Assembly: GCA_021789225.1 (NCBI GenBank)
Contig: JAJYJQ010000003.1
Coordinates: forward strand, 1-47,303
Direction of reading: 5' to 3'
Length of the DNA: 47,303 bases
DNA from: a bacterium
Lineage (GTDB): Bacteria > Patescibacteriota > Minisyncoccia > Phycocordibacterales > Phycocordibacteraceae
How positions within the stretch are numbered: position 1 is the stretch's first letter; every line of letters starts with the position of its first letter. The notes under the pieces are model-generated. The model searched no databases. It had not been told where the DNA came from and worked only from the letters and a program-made list of their open reading frames with translations. This document shows, in pieces, positions 1,833 to 46,046 of the stretch. The position numbers and the translations under genes are program-made.

Positions 1833-2408
1833 ATGTCAGGACACAGCAAATGGGCGCAAATTAAAAGGCAGAAAGGCGCGACGGACGCCGCGAAGAGCCG
1901 TGTATTCGCGCGCTTTTCGCGCCTTATCGCGCTTGAGTCGAAGAAAGCAGGCGGTGCTGTTTCGGCACCGAGCCTCGCCGCAGCCATCACCCGAGCCAAG
2001 GCGGTCAACATGCCCAAGGACGCTATAGAGCGCGCGGTCGCGAAGGGCGCTTCGAAAGATGCGGACGCGCTTGAGCAGGTGGTGTACGAGTGCTACGGCC
2101 CCGCAGGCGTCGCGGTCGTCATTGACGCGCTCACCGACAGCCGCAACCGCACGACGCAGGAAATCAAACATCTCCTCTCCAAGCAGGGATACGAGATGGC
2201 GGCGCCCGGCTCGGCTTCCTGGGCATTCACGAAAGGACCGGATGGCAGCTACACGCCAAACGAGCAGACGATGCTCGACGTGTCTGGCGCCGATGAAGAA
2301 AAGCTCGGCAACTTGCTCGACGCGCTCGACGAGCACGACGACGTACAGACCGTCTACACGAACGCGCGCGAGTACGAAAGCACACGCGATGAGGGTTCTG
2401 GCGATTGA
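1833..2408 (+). CDS. yebC: YebC/PmpR family DNA-binding regulator, short form (191 aa)
   Basis: N-terminal MSGHSKWAQIKRQKG and NMPKD.IERA, central YE.YGP.GVAV..D.LTD..NRT, and C-terminal DDVQ.VY.N are all family hallmarks. The middle domain looks about 50 aa shorter than usual. Confidence 0.85.
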   Translation: MSGHSKWAQIKRQKGATDAAKSRVFARFSRLIALESKKAGGAVSAPSLAAAITRAKAVNMPKDAIERAVAKGASKDADALEQVVYECYGPAGVAVVIDALTDSRNRTTQEIKHLLSKQGYEMAAPGSASWAFTKGPDGSYTPNEQTMLDVSGADEEKLGNLLDALDEHDDVQTVYTNAREYESTRDEGSGD

Positions 2409-2883
2409 TCCTGGGTTCGATCGGCTCGGTCTTGCCGTCCTCGAGGGCGACCCTTCGAAACCGACGCTTGTGTGGAGCATGTGCGTCGAGCCTGAGCGCG
2501 GCGAGCCGCAGGAGCGGCTCGCCGCGGTTTTTGCGGCAGTCAGAGACGCCATCGAGATGTATGCGCCAGACATACTCGCCGTTGAAACGCTCTTTTTCAG
2601 TACAAATGTGAAGACGGCTATCGGCGTCGCCCAGGCACGCGGGGCGGTGCTCGCCGCAGCAGGCGCAGCCAAACTCCCAATAAACGAGCAATCCCCGCAG
2701 GCGGTGAAGCTCGCCGTGACCGGCTACGGCAACGCAGACAAAAAAGCCGTCATGATGATGGTTTCCAAGCTCATTTCCCTCCCCCCGCGCAAACGCCTCG
2801 ACGACGAATATGACGCTATCGCGCTCGGTATCGCGGCACTCGCCAGCCGAAACCCACTTATCCACACGCAAAAAACTATGTAG
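2389..2883 (+). CDS. ruvC: Crossover junction endodeoxyribonuclease RuvC
   Basis: The internal ATG at 2389 gives MRVLAIDPGFDRLGLAVLEG... (164 aa), with the typical RuvC start and D.YDAIALGI near the C-terminus. The upstream part of ORF 2059..2883 overlaps yebC and is Arg/Ser/Thr junk. Confidence 0.9.
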   Translation: MRVLAIDPGFDRLGLAVLEGDPSKPTLVWSMCVEPERGEPQERLAAVFAAVRDAIEMYAPDILAVETLFFSTNVKTAIGVAQARGAVLAAAGAAKLPINEQSPQAVKLAVTGYGNADKKAVMMMVSKLISLPPRKRLDDEYDAIALGIAALASRNPLIHTQKTM

Positions 2884-6894: not shown

Positions 6895-8250
6895 TCATAC
6901 CAACAGGCTGCGGATATCCTCGATCTCTTTGGCGAGCTCGGCGTCCTCAGCCATATCGCCTTTGATTTTTTCGCACGAGTGAATGACGGTCGTGTGGTCG
7001 CGGCCGCCGAGCTTCGTGCCGATGGTCGGATACGAGACGTTGAAATCTTCGCGGAGGATATACATGATGATCTGCCGCGGCCGTACGACCTCTCGGCGGC
7101 GAGTCTTCTCATACACGCTGTCGGGGTCTATGCCGTAGAAATCAGCTATTTTCGAGACCACATGCTTCACCGACACGGTCTTCGTCGGCTTTGAGAGCGA
7201 CCGGAGCGACTGGCGCACTTCGGCAAGATCCGGCGGTATTCCCTTCGATTGGGTCTGGCAGACGATACTATTCACCACACCCTCGAGCTCGCGTATGCTG
7301 CCCGGCACGGTCGTCGCGATGTACTCGATCACGCGCGAATCGAGCTCGATATTGTTGGTGGCCGCCTTTTTGCGAATGATAGTCATGCGCGATTCGAGGT
7401 CCGGCTCACCGATATCCACAGTCATACCCACCAGGAAGCGGCTCCGGAGTCTTGAGGCGATGTCTGGAATAGCGGCGGGCGAGCGATCCGAAGAAAAGAC
7501 AATCTGCTTATTATTGTCATAAAGGGCGTTGAAAAGGTGGAAGAGTTCCTCTTGAGACTTATCTTTCTTCGAAAGGAACTGGATATCGTCCATGATGAGG
7601 AGGTCGTACTGGCGATACTTGTCTTTGAATCGATTCGCAGTGCCGTTTTGGAGCGAATCGGTGAAGTCGACAGCAAATTTCTCGGAGGTGAGGTAGAAGA
7701 CCTTACGGTTCGGGTAGAGCTTCTTAAACTGGTTCCCTATCGCCTGGATGAGGTGGGTCTTGCCGCGCCCAGTGTCTCCATAGATGAAAAGCGGGTTGTA
7801 GGTGATGCCGGGGCGGTTGATGGCCGCTTGCGCGGCCGTATAGGCGAGCTCGTTGAAGGAGCCGACGACGAACGAGTCGAAGGTGTAGCGCGGGTTGAGA
7901 TTGTCGCTCTTGTTGACGTAAAAGTCGTTGAGTGGCAGTTCGATGGTCGGTTTGTCGCTCTTCGCCTCGCGGGCAGGACGTTTCCGGGCGTCTTTTACGA
8001 TGACGTACTCGATATTGCGGTACTCGTAGGAAACGGAGCGGAGGATCTTCAACAGCAAGGAATTGAATTTCTTGAGGTACCACTCTCGGAAGAACTGGCT
8101 CGGGACCCCGATGTAGACGATATTGTCCTCTATCTTGACGATAGAGCTCGATTGGAACCAGGTGTTGAAGTTGGCTGGAGAAACTGAAAGCTGAACTTGA
8201 CTCAGGACGTACTCCCACAATTCATACGGACTCGTACCTGGTGCCTTCAT
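6895..8250 (-). CDS. dnaA: Chromosomal replication initiator DnaA
   Basis: 451 aa. Walker A is GDTGRGKTHL. Box VII/sensor motifs and the C-terminal DNA-binding signature (GGRDHTTV.H) are present. Confidence 0.97.
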   Translation of the reverse strand: MKAPGTSPYELWEYVLSQVQLSVSPANFNTWFQSSSIVKIEDNIVYIGVPSQFFREWYLKKFNSLLLKILRSVSYEYRNIEYVIVKDARKRPAREAKSDKPTIELPLNDFYVNKSDNLNPRYTFDSFVVGSFNELAYTAAQAAINRPGITYNPLFIYGDTGRGKTHLIQAIGNQFKKLYPNRKVFYLTSEKFAVDFTDSLQNGTANRFKDKYRQYDLLIMDDIQFLSKKDKSQEELFHLFNALYDNNKQIVFSSDRSPAAIPDIASRLRSRFLVGMTVDIGEPDLESRMTIIRKKAATNNIELDSRVIEYIATTVPGSIRELEGVVNSIVCQTQSKGIPPDLAEVRQSLRSLSKPTKTVSVKHVVSKIADFYGIDPDSVYEKTRRREVVRPRQIIMYILREDFNVSYPTIGTKLGGRDHTTVIHSCEKIKGDMAEDAELAKEIEDIRSLLV

Positions 8251-8306
8251 AGGTTGTCGCTAGTATACCCCTTTTGGCGTGTCCATACACCTGCCAAGAA
8301 TAGGTG

Positions 8307-8590
8307 CGGGAGACGTGCTTTCGAAATGAGTTGCGCAAGCGTCCTTGCAAGGTGTTTTGCCATTTCCGGGCTTGCGCTCCGGGTGGTCCTCGCGTCCGCT
8401 TTCGCCGGCATGCCAAAAAAGTGCACGCTCCGGGCCGCTAGGCCGAGTCCTATGCACTTTTATCGGCATGCCGGCTCTGCGTCCGCTATGTTCTGTATGT
8501 ATCCGGAGCGTGATGGCAAAACAAGGACGCTGGAGCAGAGGGAGCGAGCGGCTGGGCGAGCGAGCGCTCATTTCGAAAGCACGTCTCCCG
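8307..8590. repeat. 284-nt whole-length imperfect palindrome (long hairpin; candidate structured RNA or MITE-like element)
   Basis: A perfect 24-bp terminal inverted repeat pairs 8307-8330 with 8567-8590. Inner arm pairs are 8339-8347/8522-8530, 8353-8363/8513-8523, 8376-8383/8503-8510 and 8407-8425/8453-8472. The apical hairpin is ggcc-gcta-ggcc, and a large asymmetric internal bubble is present. Confidence 0.7.
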
Positions 8591-8607
8591 CGCCGGATTC
8601 CGATTTC

Positions 8608-8636
8608 TTGCGATTCCGTCCGCAACCTGGTACTAT
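8608..8636 (+). promoter_or_regulatory. Putative rpmH promoter (TTGCGA, 17 nt, extended -10 TGgTACTAT)
   Basis: Hexamer spacing is 17 nt. The -10 ends 11 nt before the rpmH ATG and no Shine-Dalgarno sequence is visible. Confidence 0.5.
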
Positions 8637-8647
8637 CCAGGGCACGT

Positions 8648-8785
8648 ATGCCACAGCGCACCTATCAACCGAACAAGCGCAAGCGCGCCAAGACCCACGG
8701 GTTCCTTACGCGCTCCAAGACCCCGTCTGGCCGCAAGACGATCCTTCGTCGTGCTCGCAAGGGTCGCGCAAAACTCGCCGTCTAG
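8648..8785 (+). CDS. rpmH: 50S ribosomal protein L34
   Basis: The internal ATG gives [45 protein letters not shown] (45 aa), the canonical L34 sequence. Confidence 0.95.
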
Positions 8786-8788
8786 CTC

Positions 8789-9097
8789 ATGTCTGCGCGC
8801 CGCAGAAGGCTCGCACGTCATGACTTCCCCGCCCTGCTCGCGGCTGGGAAACGAGTCTCTTCTGAGCATTTTTCCGTCGTCTATACCGACAAGGTGTCCG
8901 GGTATGCGGTCGTGGTCTCGAAAAAAGTAGCCAAAACCGCCGTCCGGCGCCACCTGCTGAAACGCCGCATTCGTGCGATACTAGAGCATACCGATGTTCC
9001 GAACGGGTGCGCGGTATTCGCCCGATCGGGGGCGGACACGCTTTCCTTCGGCGCCCTGGAAACGGAACTGCAGACATTGCTGGCACGTATCGCATAA
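8789..9097 (+). CDS. rnpA: Ribonuclease P protein component
   Basis: 102 aa, basic, containing VSKKV.K.AV.R...KR..R. It occupies the conserved position after rpmH. Confidence 0.88.
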   Translation: MSARRRRLARHDFPALLAAGKRVSSEHFSVVYTDKVSGYAVVVSKKVAKTAVRRHLLKRRIRAILEHTDVPNGCAVFARSGADTLSFGALETELQTLLARIA

Positions 9098-11124: not shown

Positions 11125-12162
11125 TTACTGACAATACGTAAGCGTATAATCAGGCAAAGAGAGCGTGCCCAAACAAGATTGACTAGTCAGTAACCGGTAT
11201 TTTGAATCGAGGGTCGTGCCGGGTGAAAGCTCGATAGAGCCGACCACGCTTCTGTCCAAATAATCCTGACATGATTTCTGGCTGATGAATACCTCCGCGG
11301 TATCTGTCCAGCACTGTTTCTGGGCATTGAAGAGGGCGTATTGGGCAAAGAATATGGAGGTGATGTTTCCCAATCCCAAATCTTGCCGATCAGCCATATC
11401 TATTTGAACCCCACACGCTCCACTGCCTTGCATGGGTGCGCAAATCTCGCCGCTCTTCTTGCCGCAACTGTTTGCATCAGCGTAGTAAGTAATGCTGTTC
11501 GCTGCTACCGAACTTTTCACCGACTCACACACCTGCTGAGGAGTTTTTGATTTGGGCAGTTCCTTGAGAGGAGGCGGTGTTAATTCTGTGCCGATCTGGA
11601 GCGAGAGGATCTTCGGGTTGATGAGATTGAAAATGATCACTGGCGAGAGGACGAGGAGGAGACCGGTGAGCGCCATGTAGATCCTGTTTTTACCCTTCTC
11701 TTTGCTGGTAACGCTTGCGCCGCTTCCCATGAATTCGAAACCGCCCATAATGATCTCGACCACGGCGAGCACGATCGCGATGCCGATGAGGTATTGATAG
11801 AGCGAATTCAGGAAGGCGCTCATGCCGTTTGCATCGGCCGACTGCGCGAACGCGGGGAAACCGGTCATGGAGATGAACCCGTCGGATGGTTTGGCCGGCG
11901 CGGTATTTGCAGTTGGCTGGACCGGCGCAGCCGTACCGGTAAGGTTTGATACCGAAGGACTGAATGAGTTAGCATTTACAACACCCTGCGCGGTTTGTTG
12001 TGTTCCTTGCGTAAATACGGACGGCTGCAACTGGCTGGTGGCGCCGGAGAGGTCGGGTGATTGCGCGGCAGTGCCGGCTGCGAAAGCGTGCGTGCCACCA
12101 AGCAGCAGTGCGATACCGAGTGAGAGATAGCCTATTCTTTTGAAAACCCGTTTGTTTCTCAT
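11125..12162 (-). CDS. VirB2/TrbC-like T4SS pilin core fused to a C-terminal Cys-rich domain
   Basis: 345 aa with a signal peptide (LLLGGTHAFA) and a low-complexity linker. Two hydrophobic helices flank a G-rich loop (IGIAIVLAVVEIIMGGFEFMGSG...KEKGKNRIYMALTGLLLVLSPVIIFNLI), as in VirB2/CPR T4SS pilins. An approximately 150-aa domain with 8 Cys follows. Confidence 0.6.
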   Translation of the reverse strand: MRNKRVFKRIGYLSLGIALLLGGTHAFAAGTAAQSPDLSGATSQLQPSVFTQGTQQTAQGVVNANSFSPSVSNLTGTAAPVQPTANTAPAKPSDGFISMTGFPAFAQSADANGMSAFLNSLYQYLIGIAIVLAVVEIIMGGFEFMGSGASVTSKEKGKNRIYMALTGLLLVLSPVIIFNLINPKILSLQIGTELTPPPLKELPKSKTPQQVCESVKSSVAANSITYYADANSCGKKSGEICAPMQGSGACGVQIDMADRQDLGLGNITSIFFAQYALFNAQKQCWTDTAEVFISQKSCQDYLDRSVVGSIELSPGTTLDSKYRLLTSQSCLGTLSLPDYTLTYCQ

Positions 12163-12163
12163 A

Positions 12164-13186
12164 TTACAAACCGAAGAGACCTGAGCCGCGCGCTTCAGCT
12201 TTGAAGAGGAGCTGGAAGTTAGCGGATGCGCGGGCGCTTGTAGCGGGCGTCGAGATGGAGACGGCGAGTGCCTCGCTCCCCTCTCCGGAGCCTTGCGGCT
12301 GGAGGGTTATGCGCTCGCCGGTTTGGGATTTTTGTTCGTTTAGGTACCACGTGATCTGCGGCGCGTTCGTGTCGGTCGGAAAGCCGTACGGTACCGCCAC
12401 GAAGGTTGCGTCGCTGCCGGGCATCGTGTACGAGCTGGAGAGGGCATGTTCATAGAGCGTGCCCATCAACGGGTCGCTCGCATACACGCGTACCGTCGGG
12501 TCGGTCGGCGCAAGCGTGATGCTCTGGGAGGCGACGAGGGAGCCAGCCTGATCTTGCACAGTCACCGCGACCGTCTTCGTGCGATACGGGAGCGGCGTCG
12601 CGACGATGACGGCGTTCTTCCCGATGCCGGAATCCTTCACGAGCGTCTGCGAATCGTCCACGCGCCAAGTGTAGGAGAGCGTGTGGGGGTCGATCGGCGT
12701 GCCATCTTTAGTACGGAAGTCGGGCACGGCGACGATGCGCGCGCCGCCCATCACGGGGATGCCGGATTTGCCCGGATACAGTATCGGTGCGCTCGAAAGC
12801 GGCTCGGTGACGAGCACGAGCCCGGCCGGGCGAAGCACGACGGTTTTCTGGTAGGTCTGCCCTGCTGAAGAGACGCTGACGGAAATAGACATCGGCGCGC
12901 CGCCGGCGCCTGCAGTGAGGGAGACGGGCGTCCGTCCGGTCCCGTCCGCGACCTTCTTTCCGTTTACCGACACAGAGAAGGTGCTGTTGGCGAGATTGAG
13001 CGTGGAGCTTTCGAGCGAAAGGGTGAAAGGCTGGTGCGGCGCGGGGCTTGCGGGTGAGAGCGTGAGAGAGATCGGGTCGATATCCATGCCGACTCCGCCC
13101 AGGCCCTGTGCCATGCCGGGCATGGGGGCGACCGATAGCAGCGCGAGGGTTAGCGCGAGTGCGGAAGCTATCGTCAGGGTTCGCAT
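12164..13186 (-). CDS. Secreted protein with repeated beta-sandwich-like segments (hypothetical)
   Basis: The start is placed at the ATG at 13186 (MRTLTIASALALTLALLSVAPMPGMA signal peptide). It is preceded by a hairpin, then TATACT, 6 nt, and the ATG. The longer ORF extension to 13369 is Arg-rich and overlaps the upstream gene. Confidence 0.65.
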   Translation of the reverse strand: MRTLTIASALALTLALLSVAPMPGMAQGLGGVGMDIDPISLTLSPASPAPHQPFTLSLESSTLNLANSTFSVSVNGKKVADGTGRTPVSLTAGAGGAPMSISVSVSSAGQTYQKTVVLRPAGLVLVTEPLSSAPILYPGKSGIPVMGGARIVAVPDFRTKDGTPIDPHTLSYTWRVDDSQTLVKDSGIGKNAVIVATPLPYRTKTVAVTVQDQAGSLVASQSITLAPTDPTVRVYASDPLMGTLYEHALSSSYTMPGSDATFVAVPYGFPTDTNAPQITWYLNEQKSQTGERITLQPQGSGEGSEALAVSISTPATSARASANFQLLFKAEARGSGLFGL

Positions 13187-13192
13187 ACGCAC

Positions 13193-13226
13193 AGTATAAC
13201 GCGCCCGCGCGCAAGCGCGGGCGCGT
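13193..13226 (-). promoter_or_regulatory. Internal hairpin (13199-13226) plus TATACT -10 (13193-13198), 6 nt before the ATG at 13186
   Basis: acgcgcccgcgc-gcaa-gcgcgggcgcgt is followed on the minus strand by TATACT-gtgcgt-ATG. Confidence 0.45.
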
Positions 13227-13248
13227 CTTCGTGCACATGCGTGGATTG

Positions 13249-13830
13249 CTATACGGTCTGTGCCGCGAACGCCGGAGCGAAGCTGTAGCGGTGCTCTTGC
13301 TGCTGGGCGCTCGCGAGAGCCGCCTGGTATTTCAGCTCCGCTTCCGTATCTTCTTTGCGTGTCTGCCAAACGATGACGGCCACGCCGATGAACAAGGCTG
13401 GGATGATATTAAGTATCGGGATGAAGCCGACGACGAAACTCACTGCGCTGGTGACGAGGCGTTTCGTCTCTTTGCTTCCGCCGATGAGCTCGATGCCGGC
13501 GAGCATGAACCAGATGTAGAAAAGGCCCCACGCGACCGTATCAATAGCGCTCGCGGCAGCGTCCCCCGCCGTTTCCACAGCGGCAGCGCCTGCGCCGGCG
13601 GTACCCCACTCAAGGAGGCCTACTCCCACCACCGTCGCTCCTCCGACGACGGTGCCCGCCGTGCTCCCCAGCGTCGAGTCGACCACGGCCTTCGTTCCTG
13701 CGCCCGCGATGAGCGGAAGCGTGAACGCGAGTGTCGAGAAGAAAAGGATGAACGTGCTGAAGAAAGCTGCGGTAGCCAGCATGAGCCAGGCGCGCGTCAC
13801 AGGCATCTTCTTCTGGGGCGGCTTGGGCAT
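13249..13830 (-). CDS. Gly/Ala-rich polytopic membrane protein (hypothetical, T4SS-like cluster)
   Basis: 193 aa with about 4 predicted TM helices. It starts 6 nt after the VirB4-like gene. Confidence 0.6.
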   Translation of the reverse strand: MPKPPQKKMPVTRAWLMLATAAFFSTFILFFSTLAFTLPLIAGAGTKAVVDSTLGSTAGTVVGGATVVGVGLLEWGTAGAGAAAVETAGDAAASAIDTVAWGLFYIWFMLAGIELIGGSKETKRLVTSAVSFVVGFIPILNIIPALFIGVAVIVWQTRKEDTEAELKYQAALASAQQQEHRYSFAPAFAAQTV

Positions 13831-13836
13831 AGGCGG

Positions 13837-16800
13837 CTAGAGTCCCTGCTCGTGCGCTTCAAGGCGCTCTTTCTCTTGCTTGATAGCAAGCAGCTGCGAG
13901 GGGTCGGAGGTGATGATCTGGTCTTCGGTGTACGACGCGACGATCTTTATGGCGACGTGTTTCAAGCCTGCGAAAAAGAGCCCCTCCCCCACTCCCGATT
14001 CGAGCAGCAGGTATTTTTCCTCATCGGTGAGGTTGAAGGTCTTTTGCAACACATCTACCGTGGTCGGCGATTGCTTCAAGAGGAGCTGGATGGATGAGTT
14101 GGTGAGGATCGGGCGGCCATAGGGCGAGCGCAAGAAGTCTTCCACATCTTGGGTGATGGTGCAGACGCCCAGGTAGTATTTGCGGCCGCGCTTGGCGAGG
14201 CTGTAGAGGAAAGAGGCGGTGTCTTCGGATTTCATCATCCACCACGCCTCGTCGATGATAAGGAGGCGCTTCTTGAGATTGCGGCGGATCGCGTTCCAGA
14301 TGTAGTGCGAAATGATGTACATAGCCACCGGCTTGAGCTCGTCTTCCATGTCACGCACGGAGAAGACGACGAACTGGCGGTTGATGTCGATGTTCGTCGC
14401 CTGGTTGATGAAGCCCGACCACGAGCCGCTCGTGTACTTGGCGAGGCGCTCCACCAAGGAATCGCTTCCTTCCATGCCGGTCAGCACGGCTTCAAAGTCG
14501 GAGAGCACCGGCGGCTCGATGTTCGAGAAATCGCTGTCGCCGGTGATGTCTTTGAGCGCGTACGTCTCGGTGACGGCGCGGTCGATGAGCGCGTCTTCTT
14601 CCGGCGTGAGGCCACCGAGCATGATGCGGAAGAGACCGACGAGCGTGATGATGTTGTTGCGCAAGAGGTCGCGCGGGTCCTCCCCTTCTTGCACGGCTGG
14701 CAGGTCGAAAGGGTTGATGTGGTGCTCCGAGGAGAGCGAGATGTTGAAGGAGCGCCCGTCGGTCGCGGCGGCGAGCTGCTCGTACTCACGCTCCGGGTCG
14801 ATGACGATGACGTCTGTGCCAAACATGAGCGAGCGCAGGATCTCGAGCTTGGTGGCGTATGAATTGTGCACAAACATACCGTTTTCGCCCGCGAGAAATA
14901 CCTCATCGTCCACAGTAAGGTCGTAGACGTAGCGGTCGCGGCGGTTTGGCGTCTTCTCGATGGAAACAATTGGATCCCAGAGCAGATCCGCGTTGGCGAG
15001 ATTTCGGAACATACGGATGATTGCCTCGATGCGTGGCAGTGCGGCAGCTGCGCGCTCGTATGCGTCGGTAATGAAGGCGCTTGTCGAACGCAGTAGCTCG
15101 TAGGAAGAGTTGTCGCGCTCACCGCGCAGCGACATGGAGAGATGTGGCGCGAAGCCGTTTGCCGGCAGCCCCATGCTGCGCAGCCCGTCTGCAACTATTG
15201 TCTTCAAAGTAGACACATCGCTCGGCGCGTCTATACCGGCGGCTGCGCAGATGGCGAGCGCATTTTCGGCACGTGGCGGCATTCCCTGTTTGACGGTGAA
15301 CCACGAGCTCCCGAGAGCTTCGATGAGCCGACGGTTCAGCTCGCGATTCTCGGCCGCTTTTGCAACTATGGACTCGATTGTCGGCAGGTCGGCGAGCGTC
15401 TCCATGAGCGGCCGCATGTTGCGGAAGCGTTGCACACGCGCTTCGAGCGCATCCGTAAGGCGCGCAAGGCGTTTGGGCGAGAAGTTATGCCCCTGGCGAA
15501 GAGCGGAAAACTCAGGCATGTTCCCGAGCTGCGATCCGAACACGTCGGCGAGCTCGTCGGCGAGCGGTGCGAGGCCAGGGATACTATCGACGTTCGTGTT
15601 GGCGGTCTCTTTCGCGAGAGAAGCGAGGGCGGCTTTTTTGCGTGCAGAGACGAATCCGATGTGTGCCTCGAACGCGCGGAGATACTCTTGTCCCGAAATG
15701 GACAGCTGCCAGAAGGTTCGCTTCCGGCCGGTGACGGCGTAGCGCTTCTCGCGTTTATGAACACGCGCGACGATGCCGAAGTAGTAGAGGAGGTACGCGA
15801 TACCGGAGAGAAGTTCGCGAGACTTGGATACAGCGGTAATCGCTGCGCCGTCTATACCGCCATCCCCTTCGAAGTACGCGCGCAGGTAGGCAGCAACCGT
15901 TTCTGTAGGTGCGGAAAAGAGTGTGCCAGGCACCGATTTTGTTGCCGAGTATCCATGAACTCCGAGCGCCCGCGCAAGCGTGATACACGGCACGTCGCCG
16001 CTCGCAACTGCGCGGTCTACGCGGTAGTGCCCCACGCCGAGTGTGCCAAACGCACGCTCGATATCGGCGACAACCTCGGCATCCGTATTTGTGACGATTG
16101 CGGCGCGGTCAGTCACGGTCCCTTCGGAGGAAAGGTAGCCCAACAGTGTGCCGAGCGCTTCGGAAAGCGGCAGGAGCGCGGGCAGGCGACTCTTGCCGCT
16201 CGCGGTGGTGAGTGTGAGCGAGTGCGCGAGAGTGTCATCGGGCGCGATGCCGAGCTGCGCGAGGAGCCCGAGAAGATAGCCGATCGGCATGCGCCGGCCT
16301 GCTTCGTAGTGGTAGAGATACGGGTCGAGTCTCGCATCGACGGGTGCGGCCGTGCGGGCTTTGCGCGCGCGCCGATAGGCGCGCGCGATTTCTTCCGCGC
16401 CGAGCACGTAGATACGCGGGTTCTTTGCAAACGCAGGAAGCGAGAGAAGGTTCAGCGCGCGCGTCGGCTCGGTCGGCCCGGATACTCGTCGCGGCAGCGG
16501 GACATTCTCACCCACGGCGATGTCCGCACTCTTTGCAGTCACGACGCGCCCTTCGCGCAGGACGAGCATGTTGTGGTCGGCGGTCGTGGTGATGGTGCGG
16601 CCGCTCTTAGTTTTAAACGTGTAGTAGGCATCGGGCGCGTCCTTCCGCGCGGCGACCGACACGGCGCTCCACCGCCCTTTCAGGTTTTTGTCGAAACTGA
16701 ACACCTCGATGCCCGGGTCGATAGCGCCTTCGAGATCATCGTCAACCGATATGCATCCGAGTCGTTTGATGGTTCGTTCTACGAGCGGGCCGATTTTTTC

Positions 16801-17655
16801 GAGGCGCACGTGCCCTCCTTCGCGCACAAGTACCGGCTCATCGTAGCGGAGCGACTTTCCAGATCCGGATTTTGCGAAAACGACGGAGTTATAGTTTTCG
16901 AGCGAGAAGCGGTCGAAGAGGATGAGCGAGGCGTTGTGGCGGTTGATGCCGTAGAGGATGCCGCGGTCGCTCGTGAGGTCGAAGGAGACGAACGGGAAGA
17001 TCGAGGAGAGCGGCTCGGAGTTGAGCTTCGACTCGACCTGGAGCTCGTCATTGCCGAGCGGCAGCGTCGTGCGGAAGCCCTGCTCTTGCTGGAAGAGCGC
17101 CGGCTTGGTGTAGACGAGCTGGGAATCGAGGATGCCGCGGATGTCACCTTCTATCTTATCGATCGCCTCTTTCGAGTCGCCGTAGAGCGTGAGGTAGAGG
17201 CCGACATCGAAGAGTTTTTCGCGCGCCTGCTGCAGGCGGTCGCGCAGCTCCTCGAGATTCTGGTATGCCGTATCGAGTTTCGGATCGCGCACGAGCCCTT
17301 TCGACTCGCGCTCGTTGATCTGGCTCTGCACCTCGGCGACCTTTTTCTGGAAATCGTGCAGCACCGACTCGGTGTCGATGGGGTGGATGAAAATCGCGAC
17401 GTCGAGCACCTGGTCGAGGTTGATGATGGGCGTAAACCAGCCATCGGAGAGGAAGGCTGGGTAGGAGATGGTGTAGAAGGTGCGCGCGAATTTCTCGCCC
17501 AGCTCCACCTCGCGTGCGCTGATCTTGAGCGCCGCCGGCGCGATCGTATCCACCAGGTCGAGCTTTCCTTGCGCGTAGATGTCTTTCGGAAGCACGGGCG
17601 TGATCGGGAGCGCCTCTTCTTGCTGTTTCTTGCCGAGAATATCGAGGAATGACAT
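13837..17655 (-). CDS. VirB4/TrbE-family T4SS ATPase precursor containing an intein (1272 aa; about 608 aa after splicing)
   Basis: The exteins give Walker A FAKSGSGK|SYATK and Walker B RLLIIDEAWWMM. A monoderm VirB4-like N-domain (FARTFYTISYP..L.DGW) and C-terminal motifs (RGRKYYLG..TITQ) are present. Confidence 0.85.
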   Translation of the reverse strand: MSFLDILGKKQQEEALPITPVLPKDIYAQGKLDLVDTIAPAALKISAREVELGEKFARTFYTISYPAFLSDGWFTPIINLDQVLDVAIFIHPIDTESVLHDFQKKVAEVQSQINERESKGLVRDPKLDTAYQNLEELRDRLQQAREKLFDVGLYLTLYGDSKEAIDKIEGDIRGILDSQLVYTKPALFQQEQGFRTTLPLGNDELQVESKLNSEPLSSIFPFVSFDLTSDRGILYGINRHNASLILFDRFSLENYNSVVFAKSGSGKSLRYDEPVLVREGGHVRLEKIGPLVERTIKRLGCISVDDDLEGAIDPGIEVFSFDKNLKGRWSAVSVAARKDAPDAYYTFKTKSGRTITTTADHNMLVLREGRVVTAKSADIAVGENVPLPRRVSGPTEPTRALNLLSLPAFAKNPRIYVLGAEEIARAYRRARKARTAAPVDARLDPYLYHYEAGRRMPIGYLLGLLAQLGIAPDDTLAHSLTLTTASGKSRLPALLPLSEALGTLLGYLSSEGTVTDRAAIVTNTDAEVVADIERAFGTLGVGHYRVDRAVASGDVPCITLARALGVHGYSATKSVPGTLFSAPTETVAAYLRAYFEGDGGIDGAAITAVSKSRELLSGIAYLLYYFGIVARVHKREKRYAVTGRKRTFWQLSISGQEYLRAFEAHIGFVSARKKAALASLAKETANTNVDSIPGLAPLADELADVFGSQLGNMPEFSALRQGHNFSPKRLARLTDALEARVQRFRNMRPLMETLADLPTIESIVAKAAENRELNRRLIEALGSSWFTVKQGMPPRAENALAICAAAGIDAPSDVSTLKTIVADGLRSMGLPANGFAPHLSMSLRGERDNSSYELLRSTSAFITDAYERAAAALPRIEAIIRMFRNLANADLLWDPIVSIEKTPNRRDRYVYDLTVDDEVFLAGENGMFVHNSYATKLEILRSLMFGTDVIVIDPEREYEQLAAATDGRSFNISLSSEHHINPFDLPAVQEGEDPRDLLRNNIITLVGLFRIMLGGLTPEEDALIDRAVTETYALKDITGDSDFSNIEPPVLSDFEAVLTGMEGSDSLVERLAKYTSGSWSGFINQATNIDINRQFVVFSVRDMEDELKPVAMYIISHYIWNAIRRNLKKRLLIIDEAWWMMKSEDTASFLYSLAKRGRKYYLGVCTITQDVEDFLRSPYGRPILTNSSIQLLLKQSPTTVDVLQKTFNLTDEEKYLLLESGVGEGLFFAGLKHVAIKIVASYTEDQIITSDPSQLLAIKQEKERLEAHEQGL
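14863..16854 (-). mobile_element. 664-aa intein with a LAGLIDADG homing endonuclease, inserted in the P-loop of the VirB4-like ATPase
   Basis: The N-terminal splice block is S-LRYDEPVLV (Ser1) and block B is TTTADHNMLV. The dodecapeptide motifs are LLGYLSSEG and YLRAYFEGDGG. The C-terminal blocks are YVYDLTVDDEVFLAGENGMFVHN followed by the +1 Ser. Removing the intein restores GSGKSY. Confidence 0.85.
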
Positions 17656-17664: not shown

Positions 17665-18303
17665 CTAATTTTCCAAGCGGATAGGATTTTCAAGCTCGCC
17701 CGGGTTGAAGGAGCGGTAGAGGAGCTCAATCACCTCTTCTGTCCCGAGGGGCACCGCGCGCACACCGGAAGCGCCGAGACCGGAGGCGACCAGCCCCAAG
17801 CGCTGTTGGAGCTGCACGAGGTGTTCTTCGAACGAGTCGCTCGCGTGCGCCGGTCCTGAAGACGAGCCGCCGAACATCTTTCCCACCGCATCTTTTGCGG
17901 CGGTCGTTCCGGTCGGAGAATACGGCACGACGACGTAGAACGACTTGGTCATGATGTTCGTGTTCTCGGTGAACGAGCGGATGAAGGACATGTATTCGCG
18001 CAACTGCAGGCGCAGGAGCTCCGTCTGCTGCGATTTCTCTTTCTCCGCGAGGAGCGCGAGGTACGGGCGGATGTCCATCTTGCGCGACTGCACGACGATC
18101 TCGACCGGGAAATCGAGCGTATTCAAGAAGGTTTGGAAGCCGCTGATGATCGCGTTTTGCTCGTCGGCCGATTTGAGGCCGAAGTTGACCGAGGAGCAGA
18201 TGAGGACGCCGCGATAGCCACCGTCTTTGAGGACGATGACGCCATTCCGGATCTCTTTCACCGGGACGAATTTCTGCGCGGCGCTGGAAGCGGGAGTGCT
18301 CAT
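17665..18303 (-). CDS. Hypothetical soluble protein of the T4SS-like cluster (212 aa)
   Basis: It has an ATGA overlap with the upstream PrgI-like gene and lies 9 nt upstream of VirB4. The N-terminal pattern VPVKEIRNGVIVLKDGGYRGVLICSSVNF.LKS..EQ resembles the entry domain of VirB4-type proteins. That resemblance is an inference. Confidence 0.6.
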   Translation of the reverse strand: MSTPASSAAQKFVPVKEIRNGVIVLKDGGYRGVLICSSVNFGLKSADEQNAIISGFQTFLNTLDFPVEIVVQSRKMDIRPYLALLAEKEKSQQTELLRLQLREYMSFIRSFTENTNIMTKSFYVVVPYSPTGTTAAKDAVGKMFGGSSSGPAHASDSFEEHLVQLQQRLGLVASGLGASGVRAVPLGTEEVIELLYRSFNPGELENPIRLEN

Positions 18304-18734
18304 GATCGTGAAGAGGGGCCCTGTTCATTAATGTCCATCGACCACGCGAGCTCCTGCAGCTTTCCTTGCGTGAGGCGGGAGGTGTGCGGTGTGGGGGCGA
18401 TAGGCGCGACCCCCGTCGACGCCTGCGGCGTCGACGGGTTCGCAGCCGCCTTCGGCGCCTCTTTCCGCCACAGGAAGAGGTGCGGCGAGGTGTAGAATTT
18501 CGCGGCTGCTTCAAGCACGCTGATGAACGGCTTGTTGTTCACCTTGTAGAACGCGAGTGCGCCGGAAAGGCCGACGACCGGGATGGCGAGCAGTATCGCG
18601 ACGATGAGCGGGAGGTAGCGCAGGAGGGCAATGGTCATTCCCACTCCGCCCGCGACATAGATGAATTGTTTGAGCGTGAGCGGCCCGACGATCTTGCTCT
18701 CCACCTCGATGAACTGCGGTACCTGATACTCCAT
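18300..18734 (-). CDS. PrgI-family (VirB3-analogue) small membrane protein
   Basis: The ATG at 18734 gives MEYQVPQFIEVESKIVGPLTLKQFIYV... followed by two TM helices, the typical PrgI-family opening. It is preceded by TATACT, 7 nt, then ATG. The ORF track begins at a GTG at 18755. Confidence 0.7.
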   Translation of the reverse strand: MEYQVPQFIEVESKIVGPLTLKQFIYVAGGVGMTIALLRYLPLIVAILLAIPVVGLSGALAFYKVNNKPFISVLEAAAKFYTSPHLFLWRKEAPKAAANPSTPQASTGVAPIAPTPHTSRLTQGKLQELAWSMDINEQGPSSRS

Positions 18735-18741
18735 TGCGTAC

Positions 18742-18774
18742 AGTATACCGGACACGCGCGCGCCTCGCGCGCGT
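18742..18774 (-). promoter_or_regulatory. Hairpin (18754-18774) plus TATACT -10 (18742-18747) ahead of the PrgI-like gene
   Basis: acgcgcgcg-cct-cgcgcgcgt follows the stop of the Pro-rich gene. On the minus strand it is followed by TATACT-gtacgca-ATG. Confidence 0.45.
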
Positions 18775-18780
18775 TCTCCC

Positions 18781-19704
18781 CTACTCTAGCGGCTCGCGGT
18801 ACGGGTCGATGGCGTACTCTTTGACGAGCGGTTTTTCGGGAATGGTCGAATAGGAGGGTGTGGAGACGAGCGGTTCGCGGACGAGCGCTGACGGCGTCGC
18901 GGATGGCTGCGGCGTAACCGGTGCTGGTGGAGGCGGAGGCGTGAGCTGCACCGCAGCAGGTGGCACTGGCGCGGGCTCTTGCTCCGGCACGGGCGCTGGC
19001 GAAGGCGTTTCCTCGCTCACGTTTCGACCGGCACTCTCGGATTTGGCTTGAAATGGCGGAAATCCTGCTTCGGCACTCTCCTCCTGCCCGGGCAGCACGA
19101 GCAGTGGTTTCGGAGCGTTTTCGGGAACGGAGATTTCCGGCTGTGGCTGTGGTATGGAAGGCGGCGCAACGTCTTGTGGCTCTGCTGCAGGCAAAACCTT
19201 TTCTTGCTCTGGCGTAGGTGCAGGCGCAGGCATAGGCGCGGGAGTTGGGCTTGGAGTGGATACCGGCACAGGAGGCTCTTCCCTCTCCGGCTCTGGCGGC
19301 GAAACGGGCTCCGGCTCCGGGGACGGAACGGGTTTGGGCTCGGGAGTTGGTGCAGGTTTGGATTCGGTCGTGCGGACGGGTTCTTTCTGGGAGGTCCTTT
19401 CGCGCAGTTTCTGATGGGTCGGAATAAATATCTTCTGATTAAGTTCAGAGATGATGCTTTTTGCTGTTTCTGCAGGCATGCCCTCCGCAACAAGGCTGCT
19501 CAAGAAATCCAAAGGACTCAAGAGGCCGAGGAGCAGGTTGCGGTTATACTCAGCAATCTTTCCCATGACGTCAGTGTGCAGTTTGTTGCGAGCGGCGATA
19601 TCTACGATAAGCTCGATAAGTTCGGTGCTCGAAAGTACATCACGCACTTCCTGGGGCGCATTTTGATAACTCGCAAGAATCTCTTCTTGTGTTGGTGTTT
19701 TCAT
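18781..19704 (-). CDS. Proline-rich protein (hypothetical, T4SS-like cluster)
   Basis: 307 aa with a helical N-domain followed by long PxP/EP repeats (PAPTPEPKPVPSPEPEP...). Confidence 0.6.
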   Translation of the reverse strand: MKTPTQEEILASYQNAPQEVRDVLSSTELIELIVDIAARNKLHTDVMGKIAEYNRNLLLGLLSPLDFLSSLVAEGMPAETAKSIISELNQKIFIPTHQKLRERTSQKEPVRTTESKPAPTPEPKPVPSPEPEPVSPPEPEREEPPVPVSTPSPTPAPMPAPAPTPEQEKVLPAAEPQDVAPPSIPQPQPEISVPENAPKPLLVLPGQEESAEAGFPPFQAKSESAGRNVSEETPSPAPVPEQEPAPVPPAAVQLTPPPPPAPVTPQPSATPSALVREPLVSTPSYSTIPEKPLVKEYAIDPYREPLE

Positions 19705-37240: not shown

Positions 37241-38134
37241 ATGGACGCAGAGAGCGCAAAACGACAGTTTCTTGAATACATCGAGATCGAGCGCGGGCGT
37301 GCGGTGAAAACTATCGAAAATTACGACCACTATCTCACTCGTTATTTCGCGCAGGCCGGCATCAAGCACACACGCGACATCACCGAGCAGAACATTCGCG
37401 AGTTCCGTCTCTGGCTCAATCGTCAGCCCGGTGTCTCGGGTTCGATGAAGCGCCGCACGCAAAACTACTATCTCATCGCCTTGCGTGCGTTCCTAAAATT
37501 CTTGCGCAAGCGCGACATCGAAGGCATCTCCCCCGAGCGCATCGAGCTCGCGAAGCTCCCGGAGCGCTCAATCGACCTCATCACGAATACCGAGCTTGGC
37601 CGCCTCATGGATGCGGCAAACGGCACCGATGAAAAATCCCTGCGCGACCGTGCCATATTCGAGCTTTTATTCTCAACGGGTTTGCGCGTTTCCGAGCTGT
37701 GCTCGCTCGATAGCGACCTCGACCTCTCGCGCGACGAGCTCTCAGTGCGCGGCAAGGGCGAGAAGGTGCGTGTCGTTTTCCTTTCGGAAGCGGCGAAGCG
37801 AGCGGTTGCGACGTATCTGAAAGCGCGCAAAGACATGGAAGAAGCGCTCTTCGTGAATACGGCCAATGGAAAACAGCATGGCACACGCCTCACGCCCCGC
37901 TCGGTCGAAAGAATAATCAAGTACTACGCTGCAAAAGCGGGCATCACGAAAAAAGTCACGCCCCACGTGTTGCGCCACTCATTTGCGACCGACCTGCTCT
38001 CAAACGGCGCGGATTTGCGTAGCGTCCAGGCGCTCCTTGGGCATGCGTCCATCAATACGACGCAAATCTACACCCACGTCACCGACGCGCACCTGCGCGA
38101 GGTCCACAAAAAATTCCACTCACGCGGGGAGTAA
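37241..38134 (+). CDS. Tyrosine recombinase XerC/XerD family
   Basis: 297 aa. ARG..EL (R), H.LRHSFAT.LL..GADLR.VQ.LLGH.S...TQIYTHV (H-R-H-Y) and an N-terminal SAM-like core-binding domain are present. Confidence 0.9.
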   Translation: MDAESAKRQFLEYIEIERGRAVKTIENYDHYLTRYFAQAGIKHTRDITEQNIREFRLWLNRQPGVSGSMKRRTQNYYLIALRAFLKFLRKRDIEGISPERIELAKLPERSIDLITNTELGRLMDAANGTDEKSLRDRAIFELLFSTGLRVSELCSLDSDLDLSRDELSVRGKGEKVRVVFLSEAAKRAVATYLKARKDMEEALFVNTANGKQHGTRLTPRSVERIIKYYAAKAGITKKVTPHVLRHSFATDLLSNGADLRSVQALLGHASINTTQIYTHVTDAHLREVHKKFHSRGE

Positions 38135-38212
38135 TCAACAACCCGCCGCAACCGAGGGTTTTCACTTTCCTCCAAGGTCCCCGCAACAAAGCCGGCGGGG
38201 CAAGCTTCGAAT

Positions 38213-39802
38213 CTAACCCTCCACTTTTATTAGGGTGCCCGTCTGTTTCCCTAGGATAGTAAGTTCAGAATCACGAGACCTCTTGATAACGCATCCTCTG
38301 GTATCCCCTGTAATCGTAACCTTTGCACCAGCTCCAATCTGCAAGATGCCACCCTGTACGGAATCAATAATCCAGCGTCCAGAAGGAATCTTATGTATCC
38401 CTCCATGTATGGCGCCAATATTCCTTTCCCGATACTTTTCATTTTGACCAGCAGCCTCTTCAGAGGGAGTAGGCGCGACCTTTTCGCTCGAAGGAGAATC
38501 ATCGTTCTTTACAGATGCTATTTCTGCGCGAGCTTTCTCCTTAGCGACAACGACAGCATCGTACAACTCCTTTAAAAGATTTGGATTTTCGTAATCAAAG
38601 GCTTCTCGTATGTACGGTTTCCCAAATTCATCTCTCGACCCTCTTATTCTTTCCCGCACAAGGCGGTTGCCGGTGAGTTTGCCGTCAACCAACTCAGGTG
38701 ACGATGTATAGGCTACATTATAAATGTCGTAACCTATAGTGTTCCCTTCCTTGTCTTCATAGCGATCAATGTCCATGAGTCCATCAAGAAAAAATGGATT
38801 AACCGGTATTCCTCGTTTCTTAACCTCTTCGCGCAGATATTTCTCCATCATTGGAAAATATTCGCTATCGAAGGAGTTTTCACTAATAAATGACCGGGTC
38901 TCCTCGCGTATCAGGTTTGTTCGCTCCCGGGCGGGCAGATCCCGCATGCGTTCATACCATGCATCATTCACGTGCCTGGAATCATTTTCGGGTGTTTCTA
39001 TTTTTTCCGCAGACATTACCGGGGGAAGTAGGCCTTTCTGGCGAGGCCGCTCCGGTGGAGCAGCCTCTTGGTTTTTCGGGCTGGAGCCTTCGGGCCCTGT
39101 TCCTCCCCTAACATGCTGGCCTCCAGTTTCTGCGTAATCTCGGATGACCCTTACGGCATTAACAAACTCACGCTCATTAAATTCAGATCCGTACTCATGA
39201 CGAAGAGCATCCTTTAACGGCAAGATGTTTCCCCCGAATAACTTCCCGTCACTCTTATTAAGGAGAAATTCTGCGACAGCAATCTTATAAGAAGCATCCC
39301 TATACATTTTCGATGAAGTGTCTGGATTTTTGCTCAAACGTTCCCCATATTCTTCAATCTTCTTTCGAAGTAAATTTCTCCTCTTCGCGTCTTCTGGGTT
39401 GAAAATGTCCGATTCCGGCTTTGGTGAGGCTTCGGGCGACGGCTCTGCTGCCGGTTCGGAAGATTTTCCTTGAAGTCTTGCCAAGATCTCAGCCGCTTCT
39501 TTTTGGGAGTTTTCAGCATCCAAGCGTGCCCGCTCGGCGCGTGCCGCTTCTTGTGCGGCTCTCTCTCGCGCCGCTTCTGCTGCCTCGTCGATTTTCTTGT
39601 TGATCTCCAGAGCTTCGTCTTGAGCGTTGCCGAGCATCTCGCCCTTCGCTGTCTCCATCGCCTTGGCTTCTTGGGCTAGCGTCGCGACCTTATCGAAGTC
39701 TCCTGCCGCGACGGCGGCGGTCATTTCTTGTTTCTTCTGCGCGATACCTGCCTCATTCGCATCAAATGTTTCTCGAGAGCTTGCTTTTTCAAAGTTGAAC
39801 AT
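38213..39802 (-). CDS. Hypothetical protein (529 aa), lower GC than its surroundings
   Basis: An N-terminal Ala/Glu coiled coil is followed by a central globular region and a C-terminal G-rich beta-strand segment. CATAAT lies 8 nt before the ATG. Confidence 0.6.
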   Translation of the reverse strand: MFNFEKASSRETFDANEAGIAQKKQEMTAAVAAGDFDKVATLAQEAKAMETAKGEMLGNAQDEALEINKKIDEAAEAARERAAQEAARAERARLDAENSQKEAAEILARLQGKSSEPAAEPSPEASPKPESDIFNPEDAKRRNLLRKKIEEYGERLSKNPDTSSKMYRDASYKIAVAEFLLNKSDGKLFGGNILPLKDALRHEYGSEFNEREFVNAVRVIRDYAETGGQHVRGGTGPEGSSPKNQEAAPPERPRQKGLLPPVMSAEKIETPENDSRHVNDAWYERMRDLPARERTNLIREETRSFISENSFDSEYFPMMEKYLREEVKKRGIPVNPFFLDGLMDIDRYEDKEGNTIGYDIYNVAYTSSPELVDGKLTGNRLVRERIRGSRDEFGKPYIREAFDYENPNLLKELYDAVVVAKEKARAEIASVKNDDSPSSEKVAPTPSEEAAGQNEKYRERNIGAIHGGIHKIPSGRWIIDSVQGGILQIGAGAKVTITGDTRGCVIKRSRDSELTILGKQTGTLIKVEG

Positions 39803-42626: not shown

Positions 42627-43295
42627 ATGCAGAAGAAGGTCCTACAAAAAGCCATGGCAGTACGGCTTAGAAAAGCGGGATATACATACCGTGAAATACT
42701 CGAGAAGGTGCCCGTATCAAGGAGCTCACTTTCTGTGTGGCTGCGCGATGCCCCACTTACTGACGCTGAGAAAACAGTCCTGAAGAAACGGCGTAACGAC
42801 CGGATATCAACCGGAAGGATTCGCGCGGCCGCGTCGCTTCGTAAAGCACGGCTTCATCGTGAAGGAAGTCTGCGCAAAAAGGCGGAAGAGACATTTCGCA
42901 CCTATCGACACGACGAACTCTTTAGAGTCGGGATTTCTCTCTACTGGGCCGAGGGTGCGAAGCGGGGAAATTCGTTTAGTTTCGTAAACTCAGATCCAGA
43001 TATGGTGGTGCTTATGATTGCGTGGATGGAACGTTTTTTACACATACCGAGAAAAGATATACGTGCGCGGCTCTATATCCATAGACCCTATGCACACGAG
43101 CATCTTGAAACCTTTTGGTCTGAGAAAACGGGTATTAATGAAGGTGATTTCAGACAAACTGTGTACAAGCCGACCGGGCTCCTCGTTAAAAAACGCCCTG
43201 ATTATAAAGGCTGTCTCCGTATAGAGGCTGGGGGAGTCGTCGCGCTGCGCACGTATCAGTTCTGGCAACGAATGTTGCTTGCTGAGTTGCAGTAA
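42627..43295 (+). CDS. HTH plus single-motif LAGLIDADG-like protein (paralogue 1)
   Basis: 222 aa. The N-terminal HTH is LRKAGYTYREILEKVPVSRSSLSVWL. The LAGLIDADG-type motif is FRVGISLYWAEGAKRGNSFSFVNSDPDMVVLMIAWMERF. It is a paralogue of 45222..45911. Confidence 0.7.
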   Translation: MQKKVLQKAMAVRLRKAGYTYREILEKVPVSRSSLSVWLRDAPLTDAEKTVLKKRRNDRISTGRIRAAASLRKARLHREGSLRKKAEETFRTYRHDELFRVGISLYWAEGAKRGNSFSFVNSDPDMVVLMIAWMERFLHIPRKDIRARLYIHRPYAHEHLETFWSEKTGINEGDFRQTVYKPTGLLVKKRPDYKGCLRIEAGGVVALRTYQFWQRMLLAELQ

Positions 43296-43335: not shown

Positions 43336-43408
43336 GCGCCCGTAGCTCAAAGGATAGAGCACTTGGCTTCGGACCAAGGGGTTGTGGGTTCGAGTCCTGC
43401 CGGGCGCA
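43336..43408 (+). tRNA. tRNA-Arg (anticodon TCG), no encoded CCA
   Basis: The cloverleaf was built by hand: acceptor GCGCCCG/CGGGCGC, D arm GCTC/GAGC, anticodon arm CTTGG-CTTCGGA-CCAAG, and T loop TTCGAGT. Confidence 0.85.
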
Positions 43409-43505
43409 CAAAATTCCATGAAAATATAAAGCGGCCACGTGCGAGATGAAGCAAACTGTGCACAAACGATAGGGAATAAAGGTGCGCTGGTGCTATTATG
43501 CGTGC

Positions 43506-45154: not shown

Positions 45155-45221
45155 GAACCCTTCCCAAAGGGAAGCCGGCTTGTTTTTTGAAACTGAACTC
45201 CCGGTGCTATAATTGTGCAGA

Positions 45222-45988: not shown

Positions 45989-46046
45989 CAAAATTAAGGG
46001 GAACGACACGATGTGCCGAGGAGATTAGGAAGGAGGGTGTGAGTGT

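Follow-up and report, generated by a model that had tools for sequence, protein, structure and literature searches.

The 47,303-nucleotide (nt) stretch analysed here, positions 1 to 47,303 of contig JAJYJQ010000003.1 (assembly GCA_021789225.1) and hereafter called the window, encodes a VirB4-like, CD1110-family ATPase of a type IV secretion system (T4SS), and the Walker A motif of this ATPase is split by an insert of 664 amino acids (aa). The host is an ultra-small, high-GC Paceibacterota bacterium (Patescibacteria/CPR), and the ATPase gene is chromosomal. With high confidence we read the insert as an intein that would remove itself from the protein by splicing and home at the DNA level. The precursor of 1272 aa, defined from the list of open reading frames (ORFs), its translation and Pfam matches, is encoded at 13837..17655 on the minus strand, as are all of its parts described below. 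The N-extein (16855..17655; residues 1-267) terminates in the Walker A sequence ...SGSGK and is collinear with an empty, intein-free allele (locus L001) up to the Lys codon. The intein (14863..16854; precursor residues 268-931) was delimited by profiles, by fold and by its absence from the 96%-identical loci L001 and L002. The C-extein (13837..14862; residues 932-1272), again collinear with the empty allele, begins with a Ser+1 that is at the same time the Walker A Ser of GSGK-S. With slashes marking the junctions, the protein reads ...FAKSGSGK/SLRYDEPVLV... and ...GMFVHN/SYATKLE..., placing the insertion between Lys267 and the Ser of GSGK/S. The insert is in frame and exactly on a codon boundary, and the 1272-codon reading frame is intact. 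A first-pass annotation, made from the DNA letters and their ORFs, had called an intein at 14863-16854 in the Walker A loop, and the ORF, coordinates and junction letters all match that call. It had also predicted that excision restores GSGKSY and leaves a VirB4-sized protein; deleting the 664 residues in silico indeed gave a 608-aa product with the Walker A sequence GSGKSY intact, which is the normal size for a Patescibacteria VirB4.

Residues 268-931 are built as a canonical class-1 intein with a LAGLIDADG homing endonuclease, from which splicing and cleavage activities are predicted. All of the class-1 positions were found, namely Ser1 (Ser268 of the precursor), T91xxH94, Asp645, His663-Asn664 and Ser+1. 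The Hint N-terminal splicing domain (16450..16854; intein residues 1-135) aligns with PI-PkoII and the TFIIB mini-inteins, and contains the Ser1 nucleophile together with block B, T91-A-D-H94 (16573..16584). A linker or accessory segment (16180..16449; intein 136-225), shortened in part of the family, leads to the LAGLIDADG endonuclease core (15646..16179; intein 226-403). The core carries motif 1, LLGYLSSEG (16120..16146; intein residues 237-245, with Glu244), and motif 2, YLRAYFEGDGG (15856..15888; intein residues 323-333, with Asp331), and Lys344 is present as a third endonuclease residue. Between the core and the C-terminal splicing blocks lies an all-helical module (14992..15645; intein 404-621), recognised from the predicted structure and specific to this intein lineage. 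The Hint C-terminal splicing domain (14863..14991; intein 622-664) has block F, YVYDLTV, with Asp645, and block G, which ends in FVHN, and aligns with the C-termini of PI-PkoII and the TFIIB inteins. Thus, every motif that the first-pass annotation cited (Ser1, TADH, LLGYLSSEG, YLRAYFEGDGG, YDLTV...VHN and Ser+1) was present. Its statement that extra helical sequence follows the endonuclease was also right, although the size it gave, about 250 aa, was too large, the structure model giving ~218 aa.

Profile searches agreed with this assignment. In Pfam searches with the full protein and with the isolated insert, Intein_splicing matched over the whole insert (E = 5.5e-17), LAGLIDADG_3 (PF14528) matched two stretches of it (E = 7.2e-21), and P-loop_TraG and AAA_10 matched the flanks of the precursor, both on the C-extein. 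The NCBIfam models intein_Nterm (TIGR01445; 48.6 bits, cutoff 24.5) and intein_Cterm (TIGR01443; 20.9 bits, cutoff 15.6) matched precursor residues 269-365 and 909-932, respectively. The spliced 608-aa protein matched NF045971, the VirB4-like conjugal transfer ATPase of the CD1110 family, in a single stretch (383 bits, cutoff 325) covering model positions 182-733 of 752, and the unspliced protein matched it in two stretches with 359 bits. When solved structures were searched by sequence, PI-PkoII was the best match (E = 2e-18), followed by the TFIIB and CDC21 mini-inteins and the VMA inteins.

An AlphaFold2 model of the insert, built from a 13-sequence family alignment, had a mean predicted local distance difference test score (pLDDT) of 88.2 and a predicted template modelling score (pTM) of 0.82. 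In the model, residues 1-135 and 624-664 form a β-rich Hint fold, residues ~226-403 an α/β LAGLIDADG core and residues ~404-621 an all-helical region. Foldseek against the PDB returned PI-PkoII (4.9e-24), the TliVMA intein (2e-18), PI-PfuI, PI-SceI, mini-inteins and I-DmoI. The predicted Hint fold matched the TFIIB, CDC21 and RadA mini-inteins at a root-mean-square deviation of 1.7-2.8 Å. The secondary structure of modelled residues 232-398 fits an αββαββα LAGLIDADG core, for which Foldseek gave I-DmoI, I-Tsp061I, other intein endonucleases and WhiA, the matches to I-DmoI, I-Tsp061I and WhiA having template modelling scores on the target (TMt) of 0.6-0.67. The Hint, intein and LAGLIDADG profile scans that the first-pass annotation had proposed as a check therefore all scored above their cutoffs, in agreement with the fold search.

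The junction was fixed by an empty allele (P0001) seen at two loci, L001 and L002, in a contig of a Candidatus Paceibacterota metagenome-assembled genome (MAG; GCA_036391975.1) and in an independent Logan assembly (SRR10159350). A search with the spliced extein found thousands of Patescibacteria homologues, of which the best 120 were all 589-616 aa long, that is, intein-free; P0001 was the best match, 99% identical, and both of its loci share the gene order of the window. The DNA flanks of the window are 94.7-98% identical to the empty allele, with the alignment stopping at 14859 and 16856. At the empty L001 site the two halves of the P-loop are joined directly, as GGCTCAGGCAAA/AGCTACGCC or, with the flanks continuing, …TCCGGCTCAGGCAAA/AGCTACGCCACCAAG…. 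With the intein removed, the window gene is as long as the empty one (1827 nt) and aligns with it without gaps at 96.0% nt identity, and only 5 of the 73 nt differences alter an amino acid (5 of 608 aa). This gapless collinearity and the five amino acid changes fix the junction and indicate strong purifying selection on the exteins. The alignment of the exteins to intein-free homologues thus confirmed the exact junction. An ordinary domain insertion, with homologues collinear through the insert and Hint blocks missing, had been named beforehand as the finding that would speak against an intein; what we found is that the empty allele corresponds to the spliced gene and that the insert has Hint blocks.

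The intein is common in Patescibacteria and not a one-off. A DNA-pattern scan with the family alignment, run on one genome per GTDB species, found a relative encoded in at least 92 species-representative genomes, almost all of them labelled Patescibacteria. These include Paceibacterota and Kaiser-, Taylor-, Zambryskii-, Yanofsky-, Nomura-, Nealson-, Magasanik-, Harrison-, Shapiro-, Gottesman-, Collier- and Woesebacteria, together with a few MAGs under other, unverified labels. A word-indexed protein search had returned 14 relatives only, and the reading of the intein as a rare element, which this had suggested, was dropped. We examined 80 of the carriers, reading their junctions from a MAFFT alignment to the window protein. 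The insertion site was common to all 80, GxGK/(S or T)...HN/S. Block B T..H, the His-Asn pair, the block F Asp and Ser+1 were invariant wherever the C-terminus was present, and residue 1 was Ser in 76 and Thr in two; in a separate family alignment, the block B T, D and H are all invariant. The conservation of Ser/Thr1, T..H, His-Asn and Ser+1 on which the first-pass annotation had staked its call is therefore what the 80 genomes contain, and the survey it proposed shows that both empty and occupied alleles exist at this P-loop site. Complete family inteins span 511-679 aa; the annotation was correct that the intein is 664 aa long but not that this is unusual within the lineage, where ~660 aa is normal.

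Counting the window with the 80 surveyed genomes, 75 of 81 sequences keep both endonuclease acidic residues, and all but one keep Lys344 (80 of 81). Retention of the acidic residues in so many copies implies selection for homing. In 18 of the 80 genomes, no more than 32 residues are left of the 90-aa linker (intein 136-225), with the remainder of the intein retained; this pre-endonuclease segment is therefore dispensable in the family.

Some relatives lie further afield. In L061, L065, L069 and L070, which carry unverified Micrarchaeota or archaeon labels, the site is GSGK/S, the VirB4-like exteins are only 20-24% identical to those of Patescibacteria but the inteins 39-41%, which suggests intein transfer between very distant host ATPases, possibly across domains. 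A more distant intein relative, P0133 (35% identity over 28% of the query), has Cys1 and occupies the P-loop of an SMC/AAA_15-type ATPase, GIGK/C...SHN/S, and the wider intein clade thus targets the P-loops of unrelated ATPases. In the partial P0130, for which the N-extein is missing, the intein terminus reads ...FVHN/SGGGKSYLVKLE and a complete P-loop then follows the intein; either the site lies five codons further upstream in the same loop or the P-loop has been duplicated.

Homing is suggested indirectly by three sets of observations: polymorphism for the intein between alleles 96% identical in nt, a candidate co-conversion tract beside the junction, and discordance between intein and extein similarity. 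The tract was located from mismatch bins between the window and its empty sibling as extein sequence of raised divergence at 14464..14862, continuing across the intein at 16855..16880. Differences are most crowded across the junction, where a 30-nt interval, the densest in the gene, holds 8 mismatches against an expected 1.2 (gene-wide permutation P ~0.005). None of the eight alters an amino acid, and among the codons affected is that of Ser+1, which switches between TCA and AGC. Divergence then stays high for ~400 nt into the C-extein, at 8-10 mismatches per 100 nt (~9%) as against 0-5 in most other 100-nt bins. This excess is specific to the window/L001 pair, since both alleles are equally far from outgroup alleles in the same bins. 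Gene conversion from a donor with a divergence of about 9%, whether it brought the intein in or took it out, would be expected to leave such a pattern, and we regard the tract as a candidate trace of that event. We also considered whether the silent junction changes confer immunity to the endonuclease, a reading that was unsupported because other empty alleles (L006) have the same TCA Ser+1 and AAG Lys codons; co-conversion is the simpler reading.

The distribution of the intein among relatives is patchy. The 120 closest extein relatives (82-99% identity) are all empty. Among occupied alleles, the nearest has an extein only 75-76% and an intein 56-59% identical to those of the window, so that over 100 empty alleles are closer to the window in their exteins. 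Simple vertical descent does not account for this pattern, which needs recombinational gain and loss. The identities of intein and extein are nonetheless correlated overall (Spearman 0.67-0.77), indicating movement mostly among related hosts. The codon usage of the intein follows that of the host genes (relative synonymous codon usage, r = 0.92), and an origin as a compositionally foreign insert was rejected on this ground, with nothing to suggest that it came recently from a low-GC donor.

The helical module behind the endonuclease is specific to this intein lineage and had no sequence or fold match outside it in our searches. Its motifs NTNVDxIP, PSPxxL, LNxxLWxxLGxSW and NTxY are conserved in the family and, when modelled alone, it forms 13 helices with a pLDDT of 85 (85-90 across models). 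Searches of the insert against Pfam and of the module against PHROGs gave no convincing match. A profile search of the PDB with the module gave a best E of 0.35, Foldseek against the PDB a best E of 0.46 with TM<0.25, and Foldseek against the predicted viral structures of BFVD a best E of 0.54. Scanning ten members against Pfam at E ≤ 10 gave sub-threshold HTH_3 matches (E = 0.0036) in two and, in the window copy, HTH_26 at E = 0.11. An exhaustive search with the module through 1.84 billion cluster representatives (phmmer) returned only 11 proteins, ten of which were scanned for domains: nine carry an intein and/or LAGLIDADG domain, six of these together with the TraG P-loop of VirB4, and the tenth is a spurious multi-stretch match. 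By family medians the net charge of the module is +11, similar to the +10 of the endonuclease core. The module is shortened in four genomes only.

Tentatively, and with less than even confidence, we suggest that the module is an accessory DNA-recognition domain of the endonuclease, with a role like that of the DNA-recognition region of PI-SceI or the Stirrup of PI-PfuI; it may instead regulate splicing. A broader proposal, that it is an undescribed functional domain defining a phylum-wide VirB4 intein lineage, of either a DNA-targeting or a regulatory type, seems to us rather doubtful. If it were true, a DNA-targeting module would enable the endonuclease to recognise its target, the degenerate sequence that codes for the P-loop, in hosts that differ widely and may include archaeal VirB4-like ATPases, and a regulatory module would make maturation of an essential epibiosis machine conditional.

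Taken together, the features of the window intein fit the following scheme. After translation, the Hint domain would excise itself: an N-O acyl shift at Ser1, helped by Thr91 and His94 of block B, would give an ester for Ser+1 to attack, and cyclisation of Asn664, helped by His663 and the block F Asp645, would free the intein. An O-N shift would then rebuild the GSGK-S P-loop of an active 608-aa ATPase. The unspliced precursor, with 664 residues inside its nucleotide-binding loop, is presumably inactive. On the DNA side, the endonuclease would cut intein-free alleles at the conserved P-loop-coding site, and repair from an occupied allele would copy the intein with some flanking extein sequence, giving co-conversion. 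In this scheme, the basic module would most likely be the accessory DNA-binding or target-recognition domain of the endonuclease.

Several points weigh against this reading. Splicing and cleavage are both deduced from sequence. Divergence peaks similar to the one at the junction occur in genes downstream of virB4, where the window and its sibling differ at hot spots in 12164-13700 by up to 14 mismatches per 100 nt, in the genes for a 193-aa membrane protein and a 401-aa cadherin-like protein. The junction-adjacent tract is therefore not unique, which weakens the co-conversion argument, and other parts of the T4SS cluster are therefore also subject to recombination or diversifying selection. 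The polymorphism itself may have arisen in either direction, by gain in the lineage of the window or by loss in the sibling. The GC content at third codon positions (GC3) of the intein, 0.70, is below the 0.84 of the extein, though within the range of the window genes (~0.6-0.8). For the module, the copy in the window has a net charge of only +3, and its DNA-binding role is the weakest step in the argument, drawn from position, charge and the sub-threshold HTH matches.

The alternative that survives best is that the intein has been domesticated, such that conditional splicing gates the T4SS ATPase, with the module as a sensor or interaction domain and the endonuclease irrelevant or inactive. 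Consistent with this, every one of the 18 linker-shortened genomes retains a module of ~200-230 aa, and the module is also present in P0125 and P0128, which have lost the first LAGLIDADG half. Moreover, P-loop inteins have been argued to be possibly retained for function (Novikova et al., 2016; PMC4760082), and the host T4SS, encoded near the replication origin, is essential in one tested Patescibacterium (PMC12102498). However, the endonuclease catalytic residues are kept in 75 of 81 sequences, and most close relatives, including the 96%-identical sibling, do without the intein, which is thus not needed for T4SS function. In addition, there is no junction Cys for known redox control, and the module searches found no sensor-domain homology. 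We consider domestication improbable.

Still less probable is a decayed, non-splicing insertion, whether the remains of a dead intein or an ordinary inserted domain, in a non-functional, pseudogene-like virB4 allele. Such a reading gains from splicing being only a prediction and from the intein-free allele in the same species-level population, given which the window copy could in principle be dispensable. It is at odds with the intact 1272-codon frame, with splicing residues that are all found here and invariant across 80 genomes, and with the five amino acid changes among 73 nt differences from the empty allele. Furthermore, no second virB4 was seen within the window, and epibiotic growth reportedly requires the host system (PMC12102498). 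Finally, although the source is evidently a metagenome assembly and the closest public genome is without the insert, chimeric joining of an intein-bearing fragment into a Paceibacterota contig by misassembly or misbinning is hardly credible, because two other contigs, of which one is an ENA contig of 81 kb, carry the gene for an identical 1272-aa protein, and given that the insert sits in frame on a codon boundary, at the site used in 80 other genomes and with a codon usage correlated with that of host genes. An intein that splices and homes thus remains our preferred reading.

The interrupted gene belongs to a monoderm-type T4SS cluster, with a VirB4 of the MPF-FATA type, in a window that covers the chromosomal origin region (dnaA, dnaN, yidC, ruvB and a gene for a class A penicillin-binding protein). 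Immediately upstream of the VirB4 gene, on the same strand, is a gene for a 212-aa TrsD-like protein (17665..18303, minus strand, from NCBIfam matches) homologous to the VirB4 N-terminal region. This ORF matched conju_CD1110 at model positions 2-135 (E = 3e-5) and TrsD (E = 8e-4), and its orthologue matched the TraC-like family PF26593. Because it matches the start of the VirB4 model, the N-terminal region of VirB4 is a separate gene here. This arrangement, a VirB4 N-terminal region encoded by a separate TrsD-like gene, has been described for Patescibacteria in the same cluster layout as in the window, in a study that reports 2,425 clade-specific VirB4 proteins in the phylum, frequent proximity of the cluster to dnaA and a requirement for it in the epibiotic growth of Ca. 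Southlakia epibionticum (PMC12102498). The cluster also encodes a PrgI (VirB3-like) membrane protein (18300..18755, minus strand; PF12666, E = 2e-9) and, at 11125-12162, TrbC/T4SS_pilin-like, VirB2-like pilin sequence that scored below the Pfam cutoffs. In the window, the genes for PrgI and a 307-aa proline-rich protein are only 26 nt apart (18755-18781); in the sibling L001, an extra gene for a 394-aa AAA_14/DUF4143 ATPase lies between them (7641-8825), a second presence/absence polymorphism in the T4SS cluster. An 836-aa ORF antisense to the VirB4 gene (15142..17652, plus strand) had no family matches and was set aside as a shadow ORF of a high-GC3 gene.

Elsewhere in the window, no further inteins turned up in the other ATPases (RuvB, DnaA, UvrD and ComM-like), and an Rfam scan found three tRNAs only. 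Two of these, Arg-TCG (43336-43409) and Gly-GCC (45918-45989), each lie within ~40 nt past a plus-strand gene (42627-43295 and 45213-45911, respectively) for a ~225-aa protein with an N-terminal HTH_23 (homeodomain-like) domain. A YebC/TACO1-family ORF of 191 aa (1833-2408, plus strand) seems truncated, with a second domain that covers model positions 1-55 of 160, and its overlap with an ORF in another frame (2059-2883, plus strand) suggests a frameshift or sequencing error. A gene for an Xer-type tyrosine recombinase (37241-38134) adjoins a low-GC patch (GC 0.49-0.52, 38-40 kb) holding a 529-aa ORF (38213-39802) with a GC3 of 0.46 and no Pfam match, and 37241-39802 may be a small integrated element.

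In carrier genomes, maturation of the core T4SS ATPase would depend on protein splicing. The near-isogenic occupied/empty pair and the candidate co-conversion tract may provide a natural record of intein homing in uncultured organisms. Surveys of VirB4 in Patescibacteria should expect precursors of ~1270 aa, which might otherwise distort alignments and phylogenies, and the Ser1/Ser+1 intein and the helical module might interest intein engineers. Our current understanding of inteins is unchanged by the finding. With the site, host family and mechanism being textbook and the element common in Patescibacteria, it is less exceptional than a single window implied; the residual interest lies in the helical module, in the near-isogenic allele pair and in the position within an apparently essential machine of uncultivated epibionts.

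No description of this lineage turned up in full-text literature searches for inteins in Patescibacteria, the candidate phyla radiation or Parcubacteria, and the word "intein" occurs zero times in the text of PMC12102498. However, the intein is not new in kind, with VirB4 inteins and P-loop sites already catalogued (PMC4760082). Table 3 of that work lists five cases of VirB4 (COG3451) inteins, from Firmicutes and Proteobacteria; they share the host family of the window intein, and none of the five in the table is from Patescibacteria (Novikova et al., 2016). The P-loop is a recurrent point of intein insertion, in DnaB, MCM, RFC and other ATPases (PMC4760082). The DnaB-b, MCM-a, RFC-a and VMA inteins (PDB 7qss, 1vde) likewise sit in GxxxxGK followed by S, T or C, with the residue after Lys as the +1 nucleophile, but they occupy other hosts, form independent lineages and mostly have Cys1 and Cys or Thr+1 in place of the Ser1 and Ser+1 found here. 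The best match by both sequence and fold is PI-PkoII (PI-TkoII; TMt 0.69), the DNA polymerase intein of Thermococcus kodakarensis (PDB 2cw7). It has the same order of Hint-N, accessory segment, two-motif LAGLIDADG endonuclease and Hint-C, as well as the HN terminus, but differs in length (537 as against 664 aa), is only 18% identical, resides in an archaeal PolB host and is without a counterpart of the ~218-aa module. LAGLIDADG inteins are known to gain domains that extend DNA target recognition, such as the DNA-recognition region of PI-SceI and the Stirrup domain of PI-PfuI, which are β-rich or mixed in structure and precede the endonuclease, within or beside Hint-N. PDB entries 1lws and 1dq3 were among the Foldseek matches of our intein model. 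In contrast to the PI-SceI and PI-PfuI accessory domains, the module of the window intein follows the endonuclease, is all-helical and matched no known fold, and this lineage-specific helical module is the sole unusual feature of the intein.

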